A stretch of DNA of 64,000 nucleotides from an uncultured Verrucomicrobiae bacterium (GTDB taxonomy: Bacteria; Verrucomicrobiota; Verrucomicrobiia; Palsa-1439). The stretch covers positions 362,143 to 426,142 of the forward strand of contig CAWEWF010000004.1 of NCBI GenBank assembly GCA_963812605.1. Reading direction: 5' to 3'. Below are positions 3,416 to 43,707 of this stretch, piece by piece (the first letter of the stretch is position 1; every line of letters begins with the position of its first letter). The notes beneath the pieces were generated by a model, which worked only from the letters and a program-made list of their open reading frames with translations, searched no databases and had not been told where the DNA came from. Position numbers and translations under genes: made by a program.

Positions 3416-4530
3416 CTACAGCGTCCGGCGAAACAGCAGCGTGGCGGCGGTCATGGCCAGGACGGTGAAAACCAACAGAAAAAGCAGGTCGCCGCTGACG
3501 GCCACAAGCCGGTGTTTTTCAAGACGAAGCTGTTTGAACCCGTGCACGGCGTAGGTGAACGGGTCGACGACCGCGATGGCTTTCATCCAGGCCGGAAAGG
3601 ATTGCGTGGGATAGACCGCGCCGCTGGGGAAATACAACACCGTGTTCAACATCCCGAAAATGGCGCGCGGCACCAGCGGGTCGCTCACGCGCACCATGAT
3701 CAGAAACATCATGCTGATCAGCGCCAGCGCCGTCGCCACCACCAGCAACAGCATCTTCGCCAGTCGCAGCGGGATTCAACGGATCGGGAATTCCCGCGAT
3801 GAGCGAGCCGAGAGTGATCAAAACCACCCCGGCGATGATGGCCTTGGCCGCGCCGGCGAGCGTGAAACCCAGAATCAATTCAAATTTGCGGATCGGCGTG
3901 ACGAGATAGCCCTCGTGCAGGCCGCGCGCCTTGTCGTCGATGAAAATGATGCCGCCGCCGATCATGGCCGAAACAAAGATCGCCAGCACGATCGTGCCGG
4001 GCAGCAGGTACTGGATGTAAGGCACGTACGGATAAATCTCCACGACGGAGAGCGTCGCCGCCGCGGTCGTGCGCGGCGGAACGGCGGGTCCATTGTAGGG
4101 CGCAAGCATGCCATTGAGGCTGCCTTCGAGCGCGGACGCGGAGAATTGTCGGTGTTGTCTTCGACCAGCGCGATGCGCGGATTCGCTCCGGCGAGGACCT
4201 TGCGCGAAAACTCCGGCGGAATGTCAGCACGCCGTTGATTTTGCCGTTGCGCAGATCGCGCAGCGCGGCCGCCTTGGTCGCTGTAAGCAATCGGTGTCGA
4301 AGGTGCGCGCGTTGGCGGCGACGGCCTGGCACATTTCCTTCAGTTTGATCGCCGGCACGCCGTGGTCCTGGTCGACGACGCCGACTTTCAGGTGCTTGAC
4401 GTTGCCGCCGAACGCGTAGCCCGAGCACGACCAGCTGCACCAGCGGCATGACGATGGAGACGATGACCAGAACCGGGCTGCGCCGGAACCGGCGCAGGTC
4501 GCGTTCGATGATGGCCCAGATGCGGTGCAT
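3416..4530 (-). CDS. ABC-2 type permease (several frameshifts)
   Basis: MHRIWAIIERDLRRF...YLLPG...VDPFTYAVHG spread over several frames. Confidence 0.85.
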
Positions 4531-4544
4531 ATCGTCTTGTCCTC

Positions 4545-5535
4545 TTATCCTCGCTGCATCAGAAACGGGCTGTTGGCAGCCGCCGGGCGCCTGCAACGCG
4601 TCGCGCAGTTGATGGCCGGTGTAATGCACGAACACGTCGTCGAGCGTCGTGCTCTGCACCGAAAGCGAAGTCACCGTGACGTTCGCGTTGCGCGCCGCTT
4701 CCATCAATGCCACCGTCGTGCGCGGGCCGTTGTTCGACGAAATCCGGAAGATGTTGTCCTCCGCCTTCACTTCGGCCACGTCGGGCAGGTGTTTTCACGT
4801 CTCCAGCCAGTGTTGCGGACGTTCGAGAAACTGACCTCCAGAATGTTCTTGCCGGGAATCGAGGCCTTCAATTTCAGCGGCGAATCCAGCGCCACCAGTT
4901 TTCCGTGATCCACGATCGCGATGCGGTCGCAGAGCTTGTCGGCTTCGTCCATGTAATGCGTGGTGACGAGGATCGTCAGGTCGCGCTCGCGTTTCAGCCG
5001 CGAGAGCATCTCCCAGACCGCGACGCGCGAAACGGGGTCGAGGCCGGTGGTCGGCTCATCGAGGAAGAAAAGCTTGGGCTCATGCACCAGGCCGCGCGCG
5101 ATTTCCAGCCGGCGCCGCATTCCGCCGGAAAACATTTTCACCGGCTTGTCCGCCCATTGTTCAGGTCCACTGCCTTCAGCAACTGGTCGGATGGTGCGCA
5201 GCCGCTTTTCGCGCGGAATGCCGTAGAGCTTGGCGAAGATGCTCATGTTCTCCTCCGCGCTCAGATCGAGATCGGACGTCATCGCCTGCGGAATGACGCC
5301 GATGGACTGGCGCACGTCGTTGGCCTGCGCGGACGATGTCGAAGCCGTTGACGCGCGCCGTGCCGGAAGTCGGCGGCACCAGCGTCGTCAACATGCGGAT
5401 GAGCGTGGATTTGCCCGCGCCGTTTGGCCCGAGCAGACCGAACACCTCGCCGTGCTCGACGGAGAAGTTCAGCGCGTCCACGGCCGTAAAATCGCCGAAG
5501 CGCTTGGTCAAATTTTCAACGTCGATGTCAGCCAT
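4545..5535 (-). CDS. ABC transporter ATPase, DrrA-like (frameshifted)
   Basis: [27 protein letters not shown]. Confidence 0.9.
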
Positions 5536-35683: not shown

Positions 35684-36608
35684 ATGCAGCCGACTCTTCT
35701 GGTCATGGCCGCGGGCATGGGCAGCCGTTATGGCGGGCTGAAGCAAATCGACGCCGTCGGCCCCAACGGCGAAGCGATCATCGACTACTCAATTTACGAC
35801 GCCTTGCGGGCGGGGTTCGAGCGGCTGGTGTTTGTCATCCGCCGCGACATCGAAGCGGCCTTTCGGGAGGCGATTGGCGGAAAGTTCGAGAAGCGGATCG
35901 CGGTCGATTACGTCTTCCAGGAACTCGACAACCTTCCGCCTGGATTTTCCGTCCCGCCCGGTCGCACCAAACCGTGGGGCACGACGCAGGCGATCCTCAT
36001 GGCCAAGGAAGCCATACATGAGCCGTTCGCCGCGATCAATGCCGATGATTTTTATGGACACGAGTCGTTTCAGGTCATGGCGGATTTTCTGCGGGCGAGC
36101 GGCGCTGACTACGCGATGATCGGCTACACCTTGCGAAACACCTTGTCCCAACACGGCAGCGTGTCGCGCGCGGTTTGCGAATGCGATCCGGCTGGTTTTC
36201 TGCGGGCCGTCGTGGAGTTGCCCAAAGTCGAGAAGCGGGATCGCGGCTGCGCAAGCGGAAGACCGCGCGCTCAGCGGCGACGAATTGGTGTCGATGAATT
36301 TCTGGGGTTTTACGCCCGCGTTGTTCCCGCAATTGCGGGAACAGTTCAATGCCTTTCTGCGACGCAGCGGGCAGGAATTGAAAAGCGAATCCTACATTCC
36401 CACAACGGTGAACGAACTGGTGGCGTCGGGCGCGGCCCGCGTAAAAGTCCTGCGCACCCCCGCTTCGTGGTTCGGCATCACGTACAAGGAAGACAAACCG
36501 CAGGTTGTCGCCAGCATTCTCCGGCTCGTGGAAGCCGGCGAATATCCGTCGAAGACTTTGGACGTGAAGTCGCGGCGCAAATCGATCGAGCGACCTAGGA
36601 AGGTGTGA
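35684..36608 (+). CDS. sugar-phosphate nucleotidyltransferase (frameshift near 36250)
   Basis: MAAGMGSRYGGLKQ, INADDFYG, VSMNFWGF, WFGITY. Confidence 0.9.
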
Positions 36609-38541
36609 GGTCGGCTTTCAGGGCGGGCTTCAATTCGTTCACACGCGCGGCGGCTTGCTCCCAGTCGGCGGTCGCGCGGGCGAGGTCTTCCGTGACGGTG
36701 CTCAACTCGCGATTGACGGCGACGGCGCGGCCGGGTTTGTCGTAGGTCTCGGGCTTTTCCAGTTCGGCGGCCAATTCCTTCTGCTTCTGTTCCAGGCGGG
36801 CGATTTCTTTTTCCAGAGTACCCACGAGTTGTTCCTGTTCGCGACGCTCGCGCGACCGGACATTACGCGCCTCGGCTTCTGACCGCTTTTGTTCCTTGCC
36901 CTTGGGACGCGAAGAATTCACCGGCGGCGCGACCGGGACCGCTGACGCCGCGATCGCCGCGGCGATGGCCGCGGATTTTTCGAGATAGTATTGGTAATCG
37001 CCGTGGTAATGCATCAGCTCGCCGTTGTTCACGTGCAAGACGTACTTGGCGAGCTTGCGGATGAAATACACGTCATGGCTGATGAAAATCAGTGTGCCTT
37101 CGTAGGATTCCAGCGCGCCGATCAGCGCATCGATGCTCGCCATGTCGAGGTGCGTGGTGGGCTCGTCCATCAAGAGCAGGTTCGGCGGATCGAGCAGAAG
37201 TTTGACCAGCGCCAGACGGCTTTTCTCGCCGCCGCTGAGCACGCCGACCGATTTGAAGACATCGTCGCCGCGAAATAGAAACGAGCCGAGGACGGTGCGG
37301 ACGGTTTGCTCGGAGATGCGTTGGGGGGTGTCCAGCGCTTCCTCGACGACCGTGCGTTCGGCGTTCAGCATCTCGACGCGATACTGGGCGTAGTAACCGA
37401 CCTTTACGTTCAAGCCCAACTCGCGCGTGCCGCCCTGGACGGGGAGCACGCCCGCCAGCAGTTTGAGCAGCGTGGATTTGCCCGCGCCGTTCGGGCCGAC
37501 CAGCACGATGCGCTGGCCGCGCTCGGCCTCGAAGTTCATGCCGCGATAAACGACCGTGCTGCCATAGGCGTGGTTGATGTTCTTCAGCGTGATCACTTTC
37601 AACCCGCTGCGCTGCGGCTGCGGAAAACGGAATTTGATCTTGCGCGATTCGTTCACGGGCGCTTCGATCTTGTCCATGCGCTCGATCTGCTTGAGTTTGG
37701 CCTGCGCCTGCGACGCCTTGCTGGCCTTCGCGCGAAAACGGTCGGCGAACTCCTGCAAGCGCTGGATGTCGCGCTGCTGGTTCTTGTAAGCCGCCAGCAA
37801 TTGTTCCGATTGCGCCTCGCGTTGCACGAGATATTCGTCGTAGTTGCCGCGATAGCGGAGCAACTGGCTCTGGCGAATCTCGACGATGCTGCCGACCAGC
37901 TGATTCAGGAATTCGCGGTCGTGCGAGATCAGCAACACGCCGCCCGGATAGGTTTTCAGGTACTCTTGAAACCACTGCAACGCTTCGAGGTCGAGATGGT
38001 TGGTTGGCTCGTCGAGCAGGAGCAGGTCGGGCTGTTGCACGAGCAACCGCGCGAGATGCGCGCGCATGACCCAGCCGCCGCTCATCGCTTTCAGTTGCCG
38101 ATCGAAATCGCGCTCGCGGAACGCCAGCCCGCGCAGGATCGTCTTGGCCTGGGGTTCGAGCTGATAACCGCCGAGTTCGTCGAACCGCGCCTGCACTTCG
38201 TGGAAATCGTGCGACTCGGTGTCGTGACCCGCTTCGAACAACTTCAGCCGCCGCTGCAATTCGGCGATCTCGGGCGTGATGGCCGTCGCCAACTCCAGCA
38301 CCGTCTCCTCCCCCACGGGCGCGGTCTCCTGCGGCAAATGGCCCATCGTCCCATTGCGTTCGATGGTCACCTCGCCCTCGTCCGGCGAGTCGTAGCCGAG
38401 GACGAGCGAGAACAGCGTGGACTTGCCCGCGCCGTTCGGCCCGACCAGCCCGATGCGGTCGCCGCGATTGACCTGCAGCGACGCGTCCTCGAAGAGTACG
38501 TGCGCCCCAAAGGCCTTGGTCATTCCCGAAATCGTCATCAT
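36595..38541 (-). CDS. ABC-F family ATPase (YheS/Uup-like)
   Basis: Two GPNGAGKS / SGG / DEPT cassettes, no TM segments, C-terminal coiled coil. Confidence 0.95.
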   Translation of the reverse strand: MMTISGMTKAFGAHVLFEDASLQVNRGDRIGLVGPNGAGKSTLFSLVLGYDSPDEGEVTIERNGTMGHLPQETAPVGEETVLELATAITPEIAELQRRLKLFEAGHDTESHDFHEVQARFDELGGYQLEPQAKTILRGLAFRERDFDRQLKAMSGGWVMRAHLARLLVQQPDLLLLDEPTNHLDLEALQWFQEYLKTYPGGVLLISHDREFLNQLVGSIVEIRQSQLLRYRGNYDEYLVQREAQSEQLLAAYKNQQRDIQRLQEFADRFRAKASKASQAQAKLKQIERMDKIEAPVNESRKIKFRFPQPQRSGLKVITLKNINHAYGSTVVYRGMNFEAERGQRIVLVGPNGAGKSTLLKLLAGVLPVQGGTRELGLNVKVGYYAQYRVEMLNAERTVVEEALDTPQRISEQTVRTVLGSFLFRGDDVFKSVGVLSGGEKSRLALVKLLLDPPNLLLMDEPTTHLDMASIDALIGALESYEGTLIFISHDVYFIRKLAKYVLHVNNGELMHYHGDYQYYLEKSAAIAAAIAASAVPVAPPVNSSRPKGKEQKRSEAEARNVRSRERREQEQLVGTLEKEIARLEQKQKELAAELEKPETYDKPGRAVAVNRELSTVTEDLARATADWEQAAARVNELKPALKADLTPS

Positions 38542-38589
38542 ATCGAACCGCGAAGCCTACTACCGAAAGCGGAGGTGAACAAGGTGGAA

Positions 38590-38631
38590 TTCACCACGAA
38601 GAGCACGAAGAAGACACGAAGAACACGGAAG
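38590..38631 (+). repeat. TTCACCACGAAG-(NN)CACGAAG short repeat
   Basis: Three CACGAAG units plus one variant; same motif as 31175. Confidence 0.7.
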
Positions 38632-38635
38632 CGCT

Positions 38636-39130
38636 TTAACTTCCACAATCAGCGCACGACCCCAGATTTAAGTCATTCCTGATCCAATCGTGAAGCTCAC
38701 AACAGATTGTATCAGTGTTGTCGAGATCAACACTTTTATAAATATGACCAACTAGGTCAGTTGGCATGTGTTCAATAGAACGATCTTTCAGTAGCGCACA
38801 ACGTCGCCCCGTGATGAGCATGCTACCAACCTCAATTGTGAGGTTGTAATTTAGTCCTTCCTTTTGACGATCTTCGAAGAAGGCGACTCCATATTGGCTA
38901 GCCCACATATGAGCCGCAGTGTTTGCCCAGAGTGTATCGTCAATTAACCGGTCCGACGCCAGGTGAAATTCAAGACCATGCATTGCGCACACTTTGCGGG
39001 CGGCTGCTAGAGCCGGTCCTACCGGATCATCAGCGCGTCCTGATTCACTCGGATCTGGAAAACGCGTCATCCCAAATACATTTCTTTCAAATGGATGCGC
39101 CGCTAAGAATCGCCCAAGACTAGCCACCAA
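38636..39130 (-). CDS. TIR-like / nucleoside 2-deoxyribosyltransferase-like domain protein (start uncertain)
   Basis: NVFGMTRF...GVAFFE...NYNLTIEVGSM...LLKD...PTDLVGHIY, matching the N-x-N-x3-E-x-G and P-[ST]-D-L-x-G pattern. Confidence 0.65.
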   Translation of the reverse strand: MVASLGRFLAAHPFERNVFGMTRFPDPSESGRADDPVGPALAAARKVCAMHGLEFHLASDRLIDDTLWANTAAHMWASQYGVAFFEDRQKEGLNYNLTIEVGSMLITGRRCALLKDRSIEHMPTDLVGHIYKSVDLDNTDTICCELHDWIRNDLNLGSCADCGS

Positions 39131-39205
39131 TTGAGGTGGCGTGAATGTTGGTGGAACGATGGTATGAGCAATCTCTCCTAAGGCGTGCTGACTTGCACAA
39201 ATACT

Positions 39206-39721
39206 TCATTCTGCTTGTTTGTCATTATCTACGGGCTTGTTTTTCGTTCCTTTATTGACTTGATAGGTTTTTTTGAAGAACAGCTCGCCATGTACGGTGG
39301 GTCGGAAGCCGTTGCCAGAACGGCGGAATAGACTCTTACCTTCCCGTTGAGCGTTTTTATAGGTCATATCGACACGCTCAGGGACTGTAATGCCCACTTG
39401 ATCCGCTATGTCTCTGATCTCGTCAGCAGTAAACTCTTCAGACCCATATAGGCTGTAGTGGAACCCTGCCACAGCCAACGCATTATCAGAGGGCTTGCCT
39501 TGTTTCAGTTTCGAGAAGAAGCCATCAAGGTTAACAGTTTCTGTCTTCTGTTCAATCGAGTCGGCATCCCGGAGTTCGGGTTCTTCAGCCGCTTGCCTTT
39601 TGCCGAACGGTACAATGCCTTCAAGAAGTTTCTCAAAAGCGATTCGTCGCAGACTTTCGTCTTTAATTACGCCCACTTGTTCTTCTAGGCTCTTCAACTT
39701 CTCGGTAAGTTCGTCGTCCAT
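39206..39721 (-). CDS. hypothetical protein with predicted C-terminal winged helix
   Basis: LRRIAFEKLL N-helix; EEFTADEIRDIA...FRPTVHGE; GGAG RBS. Confidence 0.75.
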   Translation of the reverse strand: MDDELTEKLKSLEEQVGVIKDESLRRIAFEKLLEGIVPFGKRQAAEEPELRDADSIEQKTETVNLDGFFSKLKQGKPSDNALAVAGFHYSLYGSEEFTADEIRDIADQVGITVPERVDMTYKNAQREGKSLFRRSGNGFRPTVHGELFFKKTYQVNKGTKNKPVDNDKQAE

Positions 39722-39765
39722 TATTTTCTCCAATTAATCCGTATTGTTGTGCGTTGCCATTTCTA

Positions 39766-40249
39766 CTACTCCGTATCATTTGTGGTCAGCCAGCCTTCGA
39801 CCTCCTCCAGCGCACTACCTGTGAGACGATAGTGCTGCACTCCACCGATTTTTTCGGCTTTCATCAGTCTTCCTGTCCTCTCCAAACCAGCCACTACATC
39901 GCTTGGGTTCTTAGGTGATTTTTCACGGCTGACTCAAAGGAGTCTCTTAAGATCCCCGCTAGAAAAGCTTTCCTTCCCTGCTTGCGTTTCCGCCCAGTAC
40001 CCAAGGACGATCGCTTTGTCCGTCAGCTTGACTCTTCGACTCTTGCGAATCAGACTCTTGGGGCGCAAGGTCTCGCTTGGGCGATGTGACTACGTCAGTG
40101 CGAACTGCAACAGGAGCGACGTTCTGCGATGTTTCGCGGTAGAGAAGGAATTTAAACGCTTCGGGCTGTACTGGGCCGGGTAAACTCGCAGTAAATTCAC
40201 CCAGGGCCTTAAGAATTTCACCGAACTCTTCAATTGACTTTATCTCCAT
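39766..40249 (-). CDS. hypothetical winged-helix-like protein, same architecture as 39206-39721 (indels near 40052 and 39940)
   Basis: AGAGGAG RBS; reconstructed VQPEAFKFLL...DKAIVLGYW...ESFSSGDLK...PKNPSDVV...YRLTGSALEEVE. Confidence 0.7.
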
Positions 40250-40314
40250 ATCTCCTCTTTTCTTGCCCCCATAAAGAAGGGCTCTGGTTTCTGTTTTTTT
40301 CCACACCTGTACTA

Positions 40315-40342
40315 ATCATATATAGGAATTCACTTAATGCAA
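40315..40342 (-). promoter_or_regulatory. sigma70-like promoter for the three-gene operon
   Basis: TTGCAT-16-TATGAT, 13 bp from repeat copy 1. Confidence 0.6.
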
Positions 40343-40355
40343 GAATAATTGTGAT

Positions 40356-40415
40356 GGCACCGAATTGTAGTCTTCGGCTCCGTCGCTGGTTCACACCGAC
40401 TGCTTGGCGTGCCGG
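40356..40415. repeat. 60-bp conserved hairpin module, copy 1
   Basis: GGCACCGAATTGTAGTCTTCGGCTCCGTCGCTGGTTCACACCGACTGCTTGGCGTGCCGG. Confidence 0.95.
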
Positions 40416-40732
40416 GTCAATGAATGATAAGCGCCGGGTGTTTGCTGCCGCTGCCGCGCGAATACATGCACCGCCAGGATTGCCTCTTGACATAGCAATT
40501 GATGAATGTTTGGCTAGCGGCCCAAAGTCGGAGCTCCATATGATTGCATGGATCTAAACGAGGCACCGCCGAACGCAAACCGCTTCTTCCATGCAAGGAG
40601 TGGGTTTTTACGGGTCCGTGGTGGTTGTGTAGGCTTGGATAAGCCGATAATAAATCTACATGAAAACTAATATATATATCTTACTATTTCTAATATATTC
40701 TGTTACAATTACTTACATAATTATATCTACAT

Positions 40733-40760
40733 ATCATAAATAGTATTTCACTATAGGAAA
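40733..40760 (-). promoter_or_regulatory. sigma70-like promoter next to repeat copy 2
   Basis: TTTCCT-16-TATGAT, 13 bp from the repeat. Confidence 0.45.
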
Positions 40761-40773
40761 ACTGTATACATGC

Positions 40774-40833
40774 GGCGCCGAATTGAAGTCTTCGGCTCCG
40801 TCGCTGGTTCACACCGATTGCTTGGCGTTCCGG
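40774..40833. repeat. 60-bp conserved hairpin module, copy 2
   Basis: 56/60 identical to copy 1, ungapped. Confidence 0.95.
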
Positions 40834-41103
40834 ACTCGTAGAGATCAGGACAATCGGCGCGATAGCCTCATTAACCTGTATTTTCGGCAGATTTAAGGAT
40901 GTGGCCATCGGATTTTTCAAATCCAAGGCGATCACAAATTAGCATACGGTGGCATGAGAAACATACGGCAACTGCCTAAACACAAGTCGAGTCCGCGATT
41001 TAGAGGCCCAATGGATGATAGATGCGGTTGAAAGCACCTGTTCGTGTTTTATTTTTTTGATGCGTAAATAACACCGGTATAACGCATTCTGTTATATGAT
41101 TAG

Positions 41104-41131
41104 AGCATAAGTCGAATTGCATGGCATGCAA
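41104..41131 (-). promoter_or_regulatory. sigma70-like promoter next to repeat copy 3
   Basis: TTGCAT-16-TATGCT, 13 bp from the repeat. Confidence 0.55.
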
Positions 41132-41144
41132 GTAGTGAAGTCGC

Positions 41145-41204
41145 GGTGCCGAATTGTAGTCTTCGGTTCCGTCGTTGGTTCACACCGACTGCTTGGCATG
41201 CCGA
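41145..41204. repeat. 60-bp conserved hairpin module, copy 3
   Basis: 54/60 identical to copy 1, ungapped. Confidence 0.95.
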
Positions 41205-41443
41205 TGCGCACTGAGATACAAATTCAGCAGTTTTTCGGGTGGCTTGAGATCAAAGACGTGCTCGTCTCCTGACGTATCTTCCCACAAAATCAAGGTAGTA
41301 TTTTAATTAGTGGTGGCGCCAGGAATCCTTTCGCAGATTTATCCCTCGGTGCAAGCGCGGCAGACTTTTGGGCAGGAGCGGCAGATTCCTCCCGAGAATG
41401 GTGAACTTGAGCCCATAAAGGCAAAGGTAGATTGTCGTGTTGA

Positions 41444-41495
41444 TATCGTAAATCGATACTTTTTGCTGGACACGGTTTGTGGAGGTCGATATAGT
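41444..41495 (+). promoter_or_regulatory. sigma70-like promoter with TATCG-N5-CGATA palindrome (copy 2)
   Basis: TGGACA-17-TATAGT; homologous to 33901-33951. Confidence 0.6.
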
Positions 41496-41526
41496 TGGCG
41501 GGTGATGTATGAGCAGAAGACCAACA

Positions 41527-42040
41527 GCGGCAAGCGGAGCGCTTGCCCTACAATTCGGATCGGCGGGAGGGTGGAATGGAGGGGATTTGGAGACCTACGG
41601 TCGAGAAAAGTGCGCGGTCGGGAGACCGGCGCACAACAATACCACTCGAACGCAGAAAGCTGCGGGCGGGACGCCCACGCCACTAGCAGGGAGATCCAAG
41701 GGGGGCCTATATATGTTTCTGCGAAACGAACCCACCGTTTTGGGAGGGCGTTTTTGGTGTAACCTTCAAGGAACACGGGGGTTGTGACGGAAAGTCCTGG
41801 AACATTCGGTGGGTTCGTTTTGGAAAACGAACCCAATTTCGGGGGGTTGGTTGCCGCGGAAACGGTGCTGCGTCGAAAAACGAACCTAAAATAGGTGCTG
41901 TAAATGAAGTCGCCGGCTGGTTTGTGTGTTCTTCGTGCATGCGGGCTAGACCCTTCGCTTCGCTCAAGGGTGACAACCTTCTGGACGCAGTGGTCCAAAA
42001 TGAAGAACGACGGCAACCAAGATGGTTGCCCTACAATTCG
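41527..42040. repeat. REP-like palindromes and AAACGAACC motifs
   Basis: GGCAAGCGGAGCGCTTGCCCTAC; GGGCGGGACGCCCACGCCACTA; GGGTTCGTTTTGGAAAACGAACCC; GGCAACCAAGATGGTTGCCCTAC. Confidence 0.8.
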
Positions 42041-42300
42041 GAAACGATATTTGCGGTGCGGAGCAATATCTTGAATCGGGTGGGGCGTGAGATAGGCTGC
42101 GCGCTTAGTACTATGCGTTTCATCACGGGAAGGAAATCCGGGGAGCCCGTGCCGTACGGGCCGCTTTTCGTCGCTTTTCGTGAAATAATCGTTTTACATT
42201 TCCGAGATTTCTGTTCTAAGCTAGTGGTTGCTTGGAGAAAGGTTGCCTCGAGCACCTTCGAGGCCCATCTCGCGTCCGCGAGGCAGGAGACTGGCGAACC

Positions 42301-43707
42301 ATGAACATGACAGACTTACTGGCGAAAACAAAAACTGAATTGCTGAAGATCGCTCACCGACACGGCCTGCGGGGGGTGTCCACGCTCAAGAAGGAGGAGT
42401 TGGCCGACAGGATTCACGAGTCCCAGCAGCGGCCCAAAGGGAGCACCACCAAACAGCCGCTGGGTCCCAGTGTTGTCGCCCGCAGAATCGCTGACGCTGT
42501 CAAACGGCGCGCGGTTCGCAAATACGCCGGGGAACCCGTCGCTCACGCCGCCCCTGTCAAAGCCCGAACACAGGCTGTCCGGCCGGGACATCGCGCCAAA
42601 GTTGCCGCGAAATCCAGGCCCATGGAAATCGAGGCGGAAGAGACCGGCCGCCCATCCGAAGAACTTTCCGCCCACAAATTCGATGTCACGCCGGCAGCGG
42701 CGGCGCCCCGGCAGGTTTTTCAAGAGGAGCACCTGGGCGAATTGCCCGATGCCTACGGCACCGGCCATCTCTTTCTCACCGCCCGCGATCCGCATTGGCT
42801 TTACGTTTATTGGGATCTCAATTGGCAGCAGATGGCCGATTTTCGCGGCCAGGCCGCGGATGGCCGTTTGTTGCTGCGCGTTTTCGAGAAGAACCACGCG
42901 GAACCGTTTCAGGTACTGACGCTCGGCCACGATTCACGCAACTGGTACATCCCCGTCAACAAGGCCGCCACCACGTACACTGCCGAGCTGGGTTTCTGGC
43001 GGCACGACGGCCATTTCCACGTAATCAGCCGTTCGCGCGAAGCCACGACGCCGCCCGATGCGATCTCGCCCGATACCACGGCCCGGTTCGCCACCATCCC
43101 GATCGATATTTCGTTCCAGGAACTTTTTGCGATCATTCGCGGCCACATGCGCGACGGCGAGGCTTTGGCCGAAGCGTTGCATCGCCTGCAACTCGCGGGG
43201 TTCCGCTTCCCCTTCAAACTCGGGCTCGAACTCGGCCCGTGGACCACGGACCAGGCTGCCGAGTTGGAGCGCATTCTCGGCGGCGATCTGTTCCGTCGCA
43301 TCCAGATGGGGTCGTTCGAAATCACGGAGTGGCTGCGCCGCCGTTTGCAGGAAGAACTCAGTTCGGGGATGTCCAGCGCGTTCAGTCCGTCGGGTTCGAG
43401 TTGGTCGGGCGCGCCGCAGAAGGGGTTCTGGTTCGCCGTGAACGCCGAGTTGATCATTTACGGCGCAACGGAACCGACGGCCAAGGTCACCATTGACGGC
43501 AAGCCCGTGAAATTGCGCAGTGACGGGACCTTCTCGTTCCAATATGCGTTCCCGGATGGACAGTACAAACTGCCGGTCGTCGCCATCTCGGCAGCCGGTG
43601 ACGACCAACGCGAAGCGCAACTGACCTTTGAACGCCAAAGCCGCACGAAAGGCGGGGTGGGCAAGGTCAAACAACCGTCGCACCTCAAAGCGCCTGCCGC
43701 CGCGTAA
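42301..43707 (+). CDS. DUF4912 domain protein with Rho N-terminal-like motif
   Basis: TKTELLKIA...LKKEEL; LTARDPHWLYVYWD; AELIIYGATEP. Confidence 0.88.
   Translation: MNMTDLLAKTKTELLKIAHRHGLRGVSTLKKEELADRIHESQQRPKGSTTKQPLGPSVVARRIADAVKRRAVRKYAGEPVAHAAPVKARTQAVRPGHRAKVAAKSRPMEIEAEETGRPSEELSAHKFDVTPAAAAPRQVFQEEHLGELPDAYGTGHLFLTARDPHWLYVYWDLNWQQMADFRGQAADGRLLLRVFEKNHAEPFQVLTLGHDSRNWYIPVNKAATTYTAELGFWRHDGHFHVISRSREATTPPDAISPDTTARFATIPIDISFQELFAIIRGHMRDGEALAEALHRLQLAGFRFPFKLGLELGPWTTDQAAELERILGGDLFRRIQMGSFEITEWLRRRLQEELSSGMSSAFSPSGSSWSGAPQKGFWFAVNAELIIYGATEPTAKVTIDGKPVKLRSDGTFSFQYAFPDGQYKLPVVAISAAGDDQREAQLTFERQSRTKGGVGKVKQPSHLKAPAAA

Follow-up and report, generated by a model that had tools for sequence, protein, structure and literature searches.

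Several described systems each resemble part of the repeat array studied here. Autoregulated operons of mobile elements can carry tandem promoters with a shared operator. Elements that integrate at the 3' ends of genes leave direct repeats, and islands can accrete there in tandem (for example, e14 in icd). In integron arrays and in clusters of attC sites lacking integron integrases (CALIN), hairpin-capable repeats part unrelated segments; the attC consensus is an imperfect palindrome with RYYYAAC ... GTTRRRY ends. Clustered regularly interspaced short palindromic repeats (CRISPR) alternate with spacers, and the RNA arrays of type III toxin-antitoxin systems (ToxI) are short head-to-tail repeats that immediately precede an endoribonuclease toxin gene. 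We analyzed a 64,000-nt stretch (the window) of contig CAWEWF010000004.1 from an uncultured Verrucomicrobiae bacterium (assembly GCA_963812605.1). In it, three copies of a 60-nt module (c1, c2 and c3), each with a promoter-like site, are separated by unrelated spacers and lie upstream of a minus-strand operon of three small genes in a low-GC island. Our preferred reading, held tentatively, is that these units are DNA-level copies, each combining an upstream element with a promoter, which recombination multiplied at the island end that carries the promoters.

A repeat finder delimited a 78-nt family at 40337-40414, 40755-40832 and 41126-41203 (spacings 418 and 371), and BLAST and nhmmer recovered the same three copies. 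The first-pass annotation, made from the sequence alone, had described three ungapped 60-nt copies with periods of 418 and 371 and with 4 and 6 mismatches to c1, and all of this was confirmed (Table 1). Identity over the 60-nt core is 56/60 between c1 and c2, 54/60 between c1 and c3 and 52/60 between c2 and c3. The own genome (4,171,178 bases) contains only these local copies (BLAST and nhmmer profile, E ~1e-20 each), and the next-best match has an E of 0.35. Of 400 further genomes sampled across the phylum, none contained a 31-nt module pattern at up to three mismatches. Exact patterns of module parts found nothing in viral or metagenome contigs, scans that diverged copies would escape. The lone three copies and these null scans show that the module is locus-specific rather than dispersed. 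A genome-wide repeat of the repetitive extragenic palindromic (REP) or miniature inverted-repeat transposable element (MITE) kind was therefore rejected, only 11 nt of the module being dispersed; nor did the 60-mer match an Rfam family. Co-occurrence of the module with the winged-helix genes, which the first-pass annotation had raised, fails, as the module profile matched 0 of 32 related loci (13 loci searched first, then 32).

The edge of each module copy facing away from the promoter is sharp. Inside the module lies a dyad, CCGAA-N8-TTCGG, centered ~60 nt ahead of the predicted start, and positions about 60 nt before a start are a common binding place of upstream activators. Coding readings were rejected: c1 and c2 share an open minus-strand frame (RQAVGVNQRRSRRLQFG), and no minus-strand open reading frame (ORF) of at least 40 aa covers c3, while on the + strand the frames differ from copy to copy, by reading. 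Contigs of three DNA runs cover the locus at low and patchy depth, and no joint between modules was seen in them. The sequencing runs listed for the region include none of RNA.

Promoter-like hexamers are found on the minus strand exactly 13 nt from each module copy, with a spacing of 16 in all three, and all three units face the operon. These hexamers had been noted before, and their placement proved exact. Pairwise identity across the units is 2-5/13 in the linker, 4-6/6 in the -35, 6-11/16 in the spacer between the hexamers, 5-6/6 in the -10 and 7-12/29 in the next 29 nt. The hexamers are thus selectively conserved while the linker and the downstream sequence drift. By our own count, P1, P2 and P3 match the sigma-70-type consensus (TTGACA and TATAAT, 16-18 nt apart, ahead of a gene) at 8, 8 and 7 of 12 positions. 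The related loci L038 and L039 have TTGCAT-N17-TATAAT in the corresponding position ahead of their orthologous first gene. The palindrome TTGCAT-N3-8-ATGCA occurs at a single site in the window, at P3, and once more elsewhere in the own genome; it is also present at the operon promoter of L038, L039 and L040. Between 40250 and 41200, no terminator-like site was found on the minus strand.

Table 1. Coordinates of the features discussed in the text (positions of the window)
Feature	Position	Strand	Remarks
Module copy c1, 60 nt	40356-40415		closest of the three to the operon; repeat finder, BLAST, nhmmer
Module copy c2, 60 nt	40774-40833		repeat finder, BLAST, nhmmer
Module copy c3, 60 nt	41145-41204		most distant from the operon; repeat finder, BLAST, nhmmer
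P1, TTGCAT (40337-40342) -16- TATGAT (40315-40320)	40315-40342	-	~65 nt upstream of the first-gene ATG (40249)
P2, TTTCCT-16-TATGAT	40733-40760	-	
P3, TTGCAT-16-TATGCT	41104-41131	-	-35 inside the palindrome TTGCATGCCATGCAA (41117-41131)
Spacer A1, unique, c1 to P2	40416-40732		
Spacer A2, unique, c2 to P3	40834-41103		
Low-GC island	38628-41443		slot has other contents in the two closest relatives
First gene (154-163 aa in relatives), disrupted in the assembly	39769-40249	-	frame change near 40054, in-frame stop near 39930
Second gene, intact, 171 aa	39206-39721	-	two N-terminal helices, disordered linker, winged-helix-like C-terminal domain
Third gene, 5'-truncated remnant	38636-39205	-	C-terminal domain kept
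Host dispersed element, box TCCGAATTGTAG then GC-rich hairpin	41523-41559; second copy 42006-42042	-	

Most simply, the unit itself is a multiplied promoter region. As in tandem promoters with a shared operator, the hexamers stand at a fixed distance from a dyad element and all face one operon encoding winged-helix proteins, and an operator-like palindrome overlaps one -35. Unlike in those systems, the shared element of the window measures 60 bp, and unrelated DNA separates the units, which lie 371-418 bp apart. Elements that integrate at gene 3' ends find a parallel in the loci L039 and L022, where the 3' ends of argH and groEL are duplicated beside the operon, and in the variable slot of the window. 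However, the window repeats lie inside the island, no integrase is nearby, and the gene-free inserts are only 250-360 bp long. Island attachment-site (att) repeats are expected at both island ends, one of them overlapping the target gene's 3' end, along with a recombinase gene. We rejected them for the window, since all three copies are at one end and no recombinase is encoded on the contig; the duplicated argH 3' end of L039 shows this feature in part.

Like integron arrays and CALIN, the window has hairpin-capable repeats of ~60 nt that part unrelated segments of a few hundred bases, with strand-biased pairing. It differs in that no integron integrase is encoded on the contig, the segments contain promoter-like sites and no ORF, and the repeats are 87-93% identical in sequence rather than alike in structure alone. 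An attC or CALIN assignment was rejected, as no R'/R'' boxes were seen by eye at the module ends and no match to PF00589 (tyrosine recombinase) lies on this contig (C4). With CRISPR and ToxI arrays, the locus shares a repeat-spacer layout directly upstream of a defence-like operon, but its period is 371-418 nt compared with ~60-70 nt in CRISPR and 36 nt, head to tail, in ToxI. We took CRISPR arrays to have repeats of 23-50 nt, spacers of 26-72 nt and cas genes nearby. Here the repeat is 60 nt, the spacers are 311-359 nt and the three adjacent ORFs have no Pfam or PADLOC match and include no recognizable cas gene, so a CRISPR array was rejected. A type III toxin-antitoxin RNA array was rejected on the distance between copies (371-418 nt), together with the lack of a PADLOC match and of a ToxN-like gene in the adjacent ORFs. 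The first-pass annotation had likewise recognized no CRISPR, attC or ToxI pattern.

Direct repeats also stand beside related operons. L039 and L040 have two 291-nt copies, 700 nt apart, ending 14 nt before TTGCAT, and the arrangement in L038 is the same, its first copy being cut by the contig end. L041 has two 76-nt copies (99% identical, 406 nt apart), and L053 has two 75-nt copies (100% identical, 255 nt apart) ahead of a three-gene operon. In acidobacterial loci, an element of 250-300 nt occurs in two copies with a period of 386-388 (L020 4745-5429, L021 4323-4985, L022 4768-5450 and L030 4565-5249), and its profile matches these four loci only. Searched with BLAST, the L022 copy was found twice each in the L022 and L020 genomes, both times at the locus, and not in the other two. 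Copies of this element are 90-99% alike within a genome and much less so between genomes (72-75% for L022 and L020), with invariant TGTACG/CGTACA motifs at the start, middle and end.

In the 2.5 kb preceding the second gene, we counted direct repeats at least 50 nt long and at least 85% identical. Eight of 22 related loci were positive; among controls of 2.5 kb, 9 of 500 taken at random from the own genome were positive, as was 1 of 29 windows placed elsewhere in these loci. The census leaves out L040 (its repeat table is the same as that of L039) and nine loci with less than ~1.4 kb upstream; L038 is negative only because the contig stops inside its first copy. Grouped by lineage (our own grouping), five have unrelated repeats (the window; L038/L039; L041; L053; L020/L021/L022/L030) and roughly ten have none. 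It is unexpected that an unnamed operon family in at least six phyla (by record labels) repeatedly has locus-specific upstream repeats of 60-300 nt, which are near-identical within a genome and diverge between genomes. In five loci, acidobacterial and other, repeats also follow the operon; by eye these resemble dispersed arrays of the REP type or paralogous coding sequence, and they were left out of account. In L041, the gene that precedes the repeats (1-699) ends in a segment with a YASKYVGK motif, which we take to resemble rolling-circle replication initiators; against PHROGs it had nothing below E 0.069.

Some of these repeats contain the 3' ends of host genes. The L039 repeat (4350-4640 and 5050-5340) joins the final 76 nt of argH (Pfam Lyase_1, ASL_C2) to 215 nt of downstream sequence, and in L022 the groEL 3' end and its terminator are duplicated on either side of a tRNA gene (4169-4289 and 4629-4749). 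Repeats can thus be made from whatever adjoins the promoter end, which argues for recombination rather than for a dedicated sequence. The 215-nt part is 98.6% identical between the two L039 copies and 83-84% identical to its L038 orthologue, and the argH-like relic and the end of the live gene share 74% identity. These identities indicate concerted evolution or repeated exchange of the L039 repeats. The inserts of different lineages are unrelated. Between L038 and L039, the insert is 71.6% identical, its indel lengths are not divisible by three, and fourfold-degenerate sites of the three genes are 78-89% identical. Since it evolves no slower than synonymous sites and has frame-breaking indels, the insert is without visible constraint.

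In the reading we prefer, the units would be DNA-level copies of the region that controls the operon from upstream, each made up of the 60-bp element and a sigma-70-type promoter directed at the operon. Recombination where the promoters lie, at one end of a small, mobile and defence-like island, may have multiplied them, giving the layout repeat-insert-repeat-insert-repeat-operon. The hexamers would fire, with the P3 and P2 transcripts running through the spacers toward the operon; either a winged-helix protein encoded in the operon or a host factor might bind the module, and the spacers would be carried-along DNA without a function of their own.

The spacers A1 and A2 are unrelated to one another, as had been stated, but the description of them as AT-rich applies only in part: their GC content is 42-43% overall, and each combines an AT-rich part beside the hexamers with a part of 50-55% GC. 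Only one spacer ORF, of 26 aa, has a Shine-Dalgarno-like site. Neither spacer matched the own genome. Phage and plasmid sequences, which the first-pass annotation had suggested for comparison, offered no real match, with a single AT-rich chance match among phages (E 8e-3) and none among plasmids. Compared by blastx with the system's proteins, the spacers gave nothing below E 0.3, and no gene relics were recognizable. The earlier ~1 kb of non-coding DNA contains no convincing gene, but this non-coding stretch reaches ~42300 and does not end at 41204.

Folding analyses gave the module no support as a structured RNA. Rfam had no match in the whole window at the gathering score and none at E up to 5 in 39800-43000, nor did the related loci L038, L041 and L039 match. 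For 71-nt stretches around c1, c2 and c3, the folding z scores were -0.6, -0.9 and -1.2 on the + strand and -1.4, -1.0 and -4.0 on the minus strand, the outlier at c3 drawing on flanks that are not common to the copies. Repeats of L041, L053 and L039 had z scores of -0.8 to +1.7, not better than shuffles. We counted pairing in two mutually incompatible folds, the long bulged hairpin and one with two hairpins (CCGAA-loop-TTCGG, its stem extended, and CCGA-loop-TTGG). In both, 94-96% of cells are paired on the + strand compared with 79-84% on the minus strand, which pairs worse because G-U pairs of the + strand turn into C-A mismatches. The pairings described in the first-pass annotation exist (GTAGTC with GACTGC, and module positions 3:54 as C:G, C:G and T:A). 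Positions 3:54 do covary but are the only compensated pair, a level attained by 172 of 500 shuffles (169-172 over the pairing counts), and a lone compensatory pair among three sequences carries no statistical weight. The consensus fold of the acidobacterial loci reaches -16.7 kcal/mol with 13 compensated pairs on the strand opposite to the operon and -7.7 with 4 on the operon strand. Any role of a single strand would have to belong to the + strand, which is opposite to the operon. After c1, the + strand has a terminator-like hairpin with a T-run (40580-40603), and no convincing + strand promoter was seen by eye directly before the modules. A protein-binding or recombination site, the alternative named earlier, fits these results better than a structured RNA module.

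Several points weigh against the units being upstream elements with promoters. The module is absent from all 32 related loci and so cannot be the family's common operator. Our consensus promoter scan, which listed sites from 9 of 12 upward, omits all three promoter-like sites because they score 7-8. The census positives include L025, where the repeat looks by eye like paralogous coding sequence, and four loci of one lineage. The host DNA in some related-locus repeats argues against a specific binding role in general. The operon is decayed relative to L038-L040, with gene 1 frameshifted in this assembly and gene 3 truncated, so the array may no longer do anything. The better pairing of the + strand could, moreover, reflect a single-stranded role opposite to the operon. 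Such a bias is expected of a site that folds as single-stranded DNA, and the modules might be recombination sites, with the spacers as small cassettes or as remnants of earlier insertions at the same point. This could take the form of tandem accretion at the island end or of an integron-like cassette array with its recombinase encoded elsewhere. Sharp promoter-distal copy edges, spacers unrelated to one another and to anything searched, host gene 3' ends duplicated in L039 and L022 as integrating elements do, and a slot that varies among close relatives would all suit it. We nevertheless consider it unlikely, as no module copy was found by nhmmer or BLAST at the other island end beside the ABC-F gene (38550-38640), contig C4 has none of the 12 PF00589 matches of the genome, and no attC-type R'/R'' box was visible by eye. 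The spacers are also without recognizable gene relics, and the module was missing from the 400 phylum genomes and the exact-pattern scans.

Alternatively, the repeats may be functionless duplication scars in a dying island, and the conserved hexamers a leftover of recent common descent. The damage to genes 1 and 3, an L038/L039 insert that evolves no slower than synonymous sites and an island unmatched in 40 relatives, among the matches listed, are consistent with this. We regard it as distinctly unlikely, because the hexamers were kept while the linker (2-5/13) and downstream sequence (7-12/29) diverged, L038 and L039 keep the repeat-insert-repeat layout with intact operons, and the 40054 frameshift is missing from one contig of the same study. 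If the layout is a scar, it would mark island-end recombination that duplicates flanking DNA, host gene 3' ends included, and would be useful to delimit islands and to understand their turnover. A role in RNA would place the module at the 3' end of two minus-strand RNAs of 320-370 nt, as the first-pass annotation proposed, or in the 5' part of + strand RNAs that run away from the operon. Promoter-like sites ahead of each spacer on the minus strand fit the former; the + strand terminator-like hairpin after c1, the 94-96% pairing of that strand and the better folding of the acidobacterial loci on the strand opposite to the operon fit the latter. We think either form very unlikely, given the missing Rfam match, the single compensatory pair among three sequences, z scores of only -0.6 to -1.4 for five of six module folds and -0.8 to +1.7 for the repeats of other loci, and the absence, by eye, of a convincing + strand promoter right before the modules. 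The minus-strand RNA with a constant structured 3' module is not supported, given shuffle-level folding and the worse pairing of the very strand it needs. The least probable reading makes the repeat-insert-repeat layout a working part of an uncharacterized three-gene system, which could consist of two paralogous winged-helix proteins and a third in which a winged helix is joined to a TIR-like or deoxyribosyltransferase-like domain. Either this system or a recombinase working with it could insert promoter-bearing segments next to the system's promoter, duplicating 60-300 nt of neighboring sequence at every insertion, much like an acquisition array with long repeats, or each repeat could co-regulate the operon and one or two fast-evolving non-coding defence transcripts. 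A functional layout would point to a new regulatory or acquisition design in defence islands.

The operon genes and their relatives (the three ORFs of the window included) matched no family in Pfam, PADLOC, PHROGs or NCBIfam; PADLOC gave nothing at E up to 1 for the window ORFs and only noise (E 0.005-0.05) for the relatives. One soil metagenome contig from the same study lacks one base exactly at 40054, so the first-gene frameshift may reflect polymorphism among strains or an error in the assembly. The structural model of the second gene product has a mean predicted local distance difference test (pLDDT) score of 80, and the best structural neighbors of its C-terminal domain are winged-helix regulators, at E values of only 0.3-1. 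Its profile found nothing below E 0.17 among PDB sequences. We identified 34 homologues of ~170 aa, all unnamed and labeled in their records as Verrucomicrobia, Acidobacteria, Planctomycetota, Beta- and Deltaproteobacteria, Sumerlaeota and others. An unnamed 247-aa protein follows the second-gene homologue in 11 of 13 genome loci, and the metagenome loci L038, L039 and L040 have the gene order first-second-third, as in the window.

The third gene of the window lacks the ~120-residue N-terminal winged-helix domain of its 292-325-aa relatives. In the AlphaFold model of one relative, this domain has a pLDDT of 80-93, while 160 of 303 residues are below 50 and the C-terminal domain is poor. Neighbor clusters of the C-terminal domain in a language-model atlas contain 12-15% members of the CAP12/PycTIR TIR-like family and 26-35% members of the nucleoside 2-deoxyribosyltransferase family, a lead that suggests a TIR-like or deoxyribosyltransferase-like domain. 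From this lead and the slot context, the description of the operon as defence-like is plausible.

The array stretch has a GC content of ~42-53% compared with ~60% around it. On the minus strand, the three small ORFs are followed by an ABC-F ATPase gene (36595-38541); the right flank has a host gene for a DUF4912/Rho_N protein at 42301 and then a GH57 enzyme. BLAST of 38600-42300 against 40 relatives gave nothing left of ~41443 among the matches listed. In the closest relatives, G004 and G012, the ABC-F gene is 92-93% identical, and homology stops at 38621-38627 and restarts at ~41444. The same slot holds an N6/N4 DNA methylase and an unnamed 271-aa ORF in G004 (L035 1988-4131), and a SocA/Panacea antitoxin, an Mrr endonuclease and a NERD nuclease in G012 (L036 1025-3623). 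As relatives carry other genes there, the island sits in a variable slot of the defence-island kind, in agreement with the defence-like context proposed earlier.

From 41444 to ~42170, the host DNA is made of genus-wide dispersed repeats, and synteny with other genus members restarts at 42171-42183. In G006, G009 and G015, the ABC-F gene and the DUF4912/GH57 pair are 5-11 kb apart in opposite relative orientation, whereas they are neighbors in the window, so the island slot marks one end of an inversion or rearrangement.

The module begins with 11 nt (CCGAATTGTAG) that are identical to the conserved box of a host dispersed element, two copies of which lie 320 and 800 nt from c3 in opposite orientation. 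This 11-mer occurs 15 times in the genome compared with ~2 expected; by our own reading, ten of the sites are in the dispersed element and two in the modules. The element had no Rfam match within the window. The island may have borrowed the box from host sequence, or one host factor may bind both. In the element's hairpin, the stem sequence varies among copies with the pairing kept, by eye. The element is also present on contigs C1, C5, C6, C8, C10, C11 and C12 of G000 and in genus relatives. Another repeat of ~150 nt lies at 41702-41848, with an internal inverted repeat (41717-41737 and 41807-41827); it has many copies of 72-87% identity in the genome and in genus relatives and is MITE- or REP-like.

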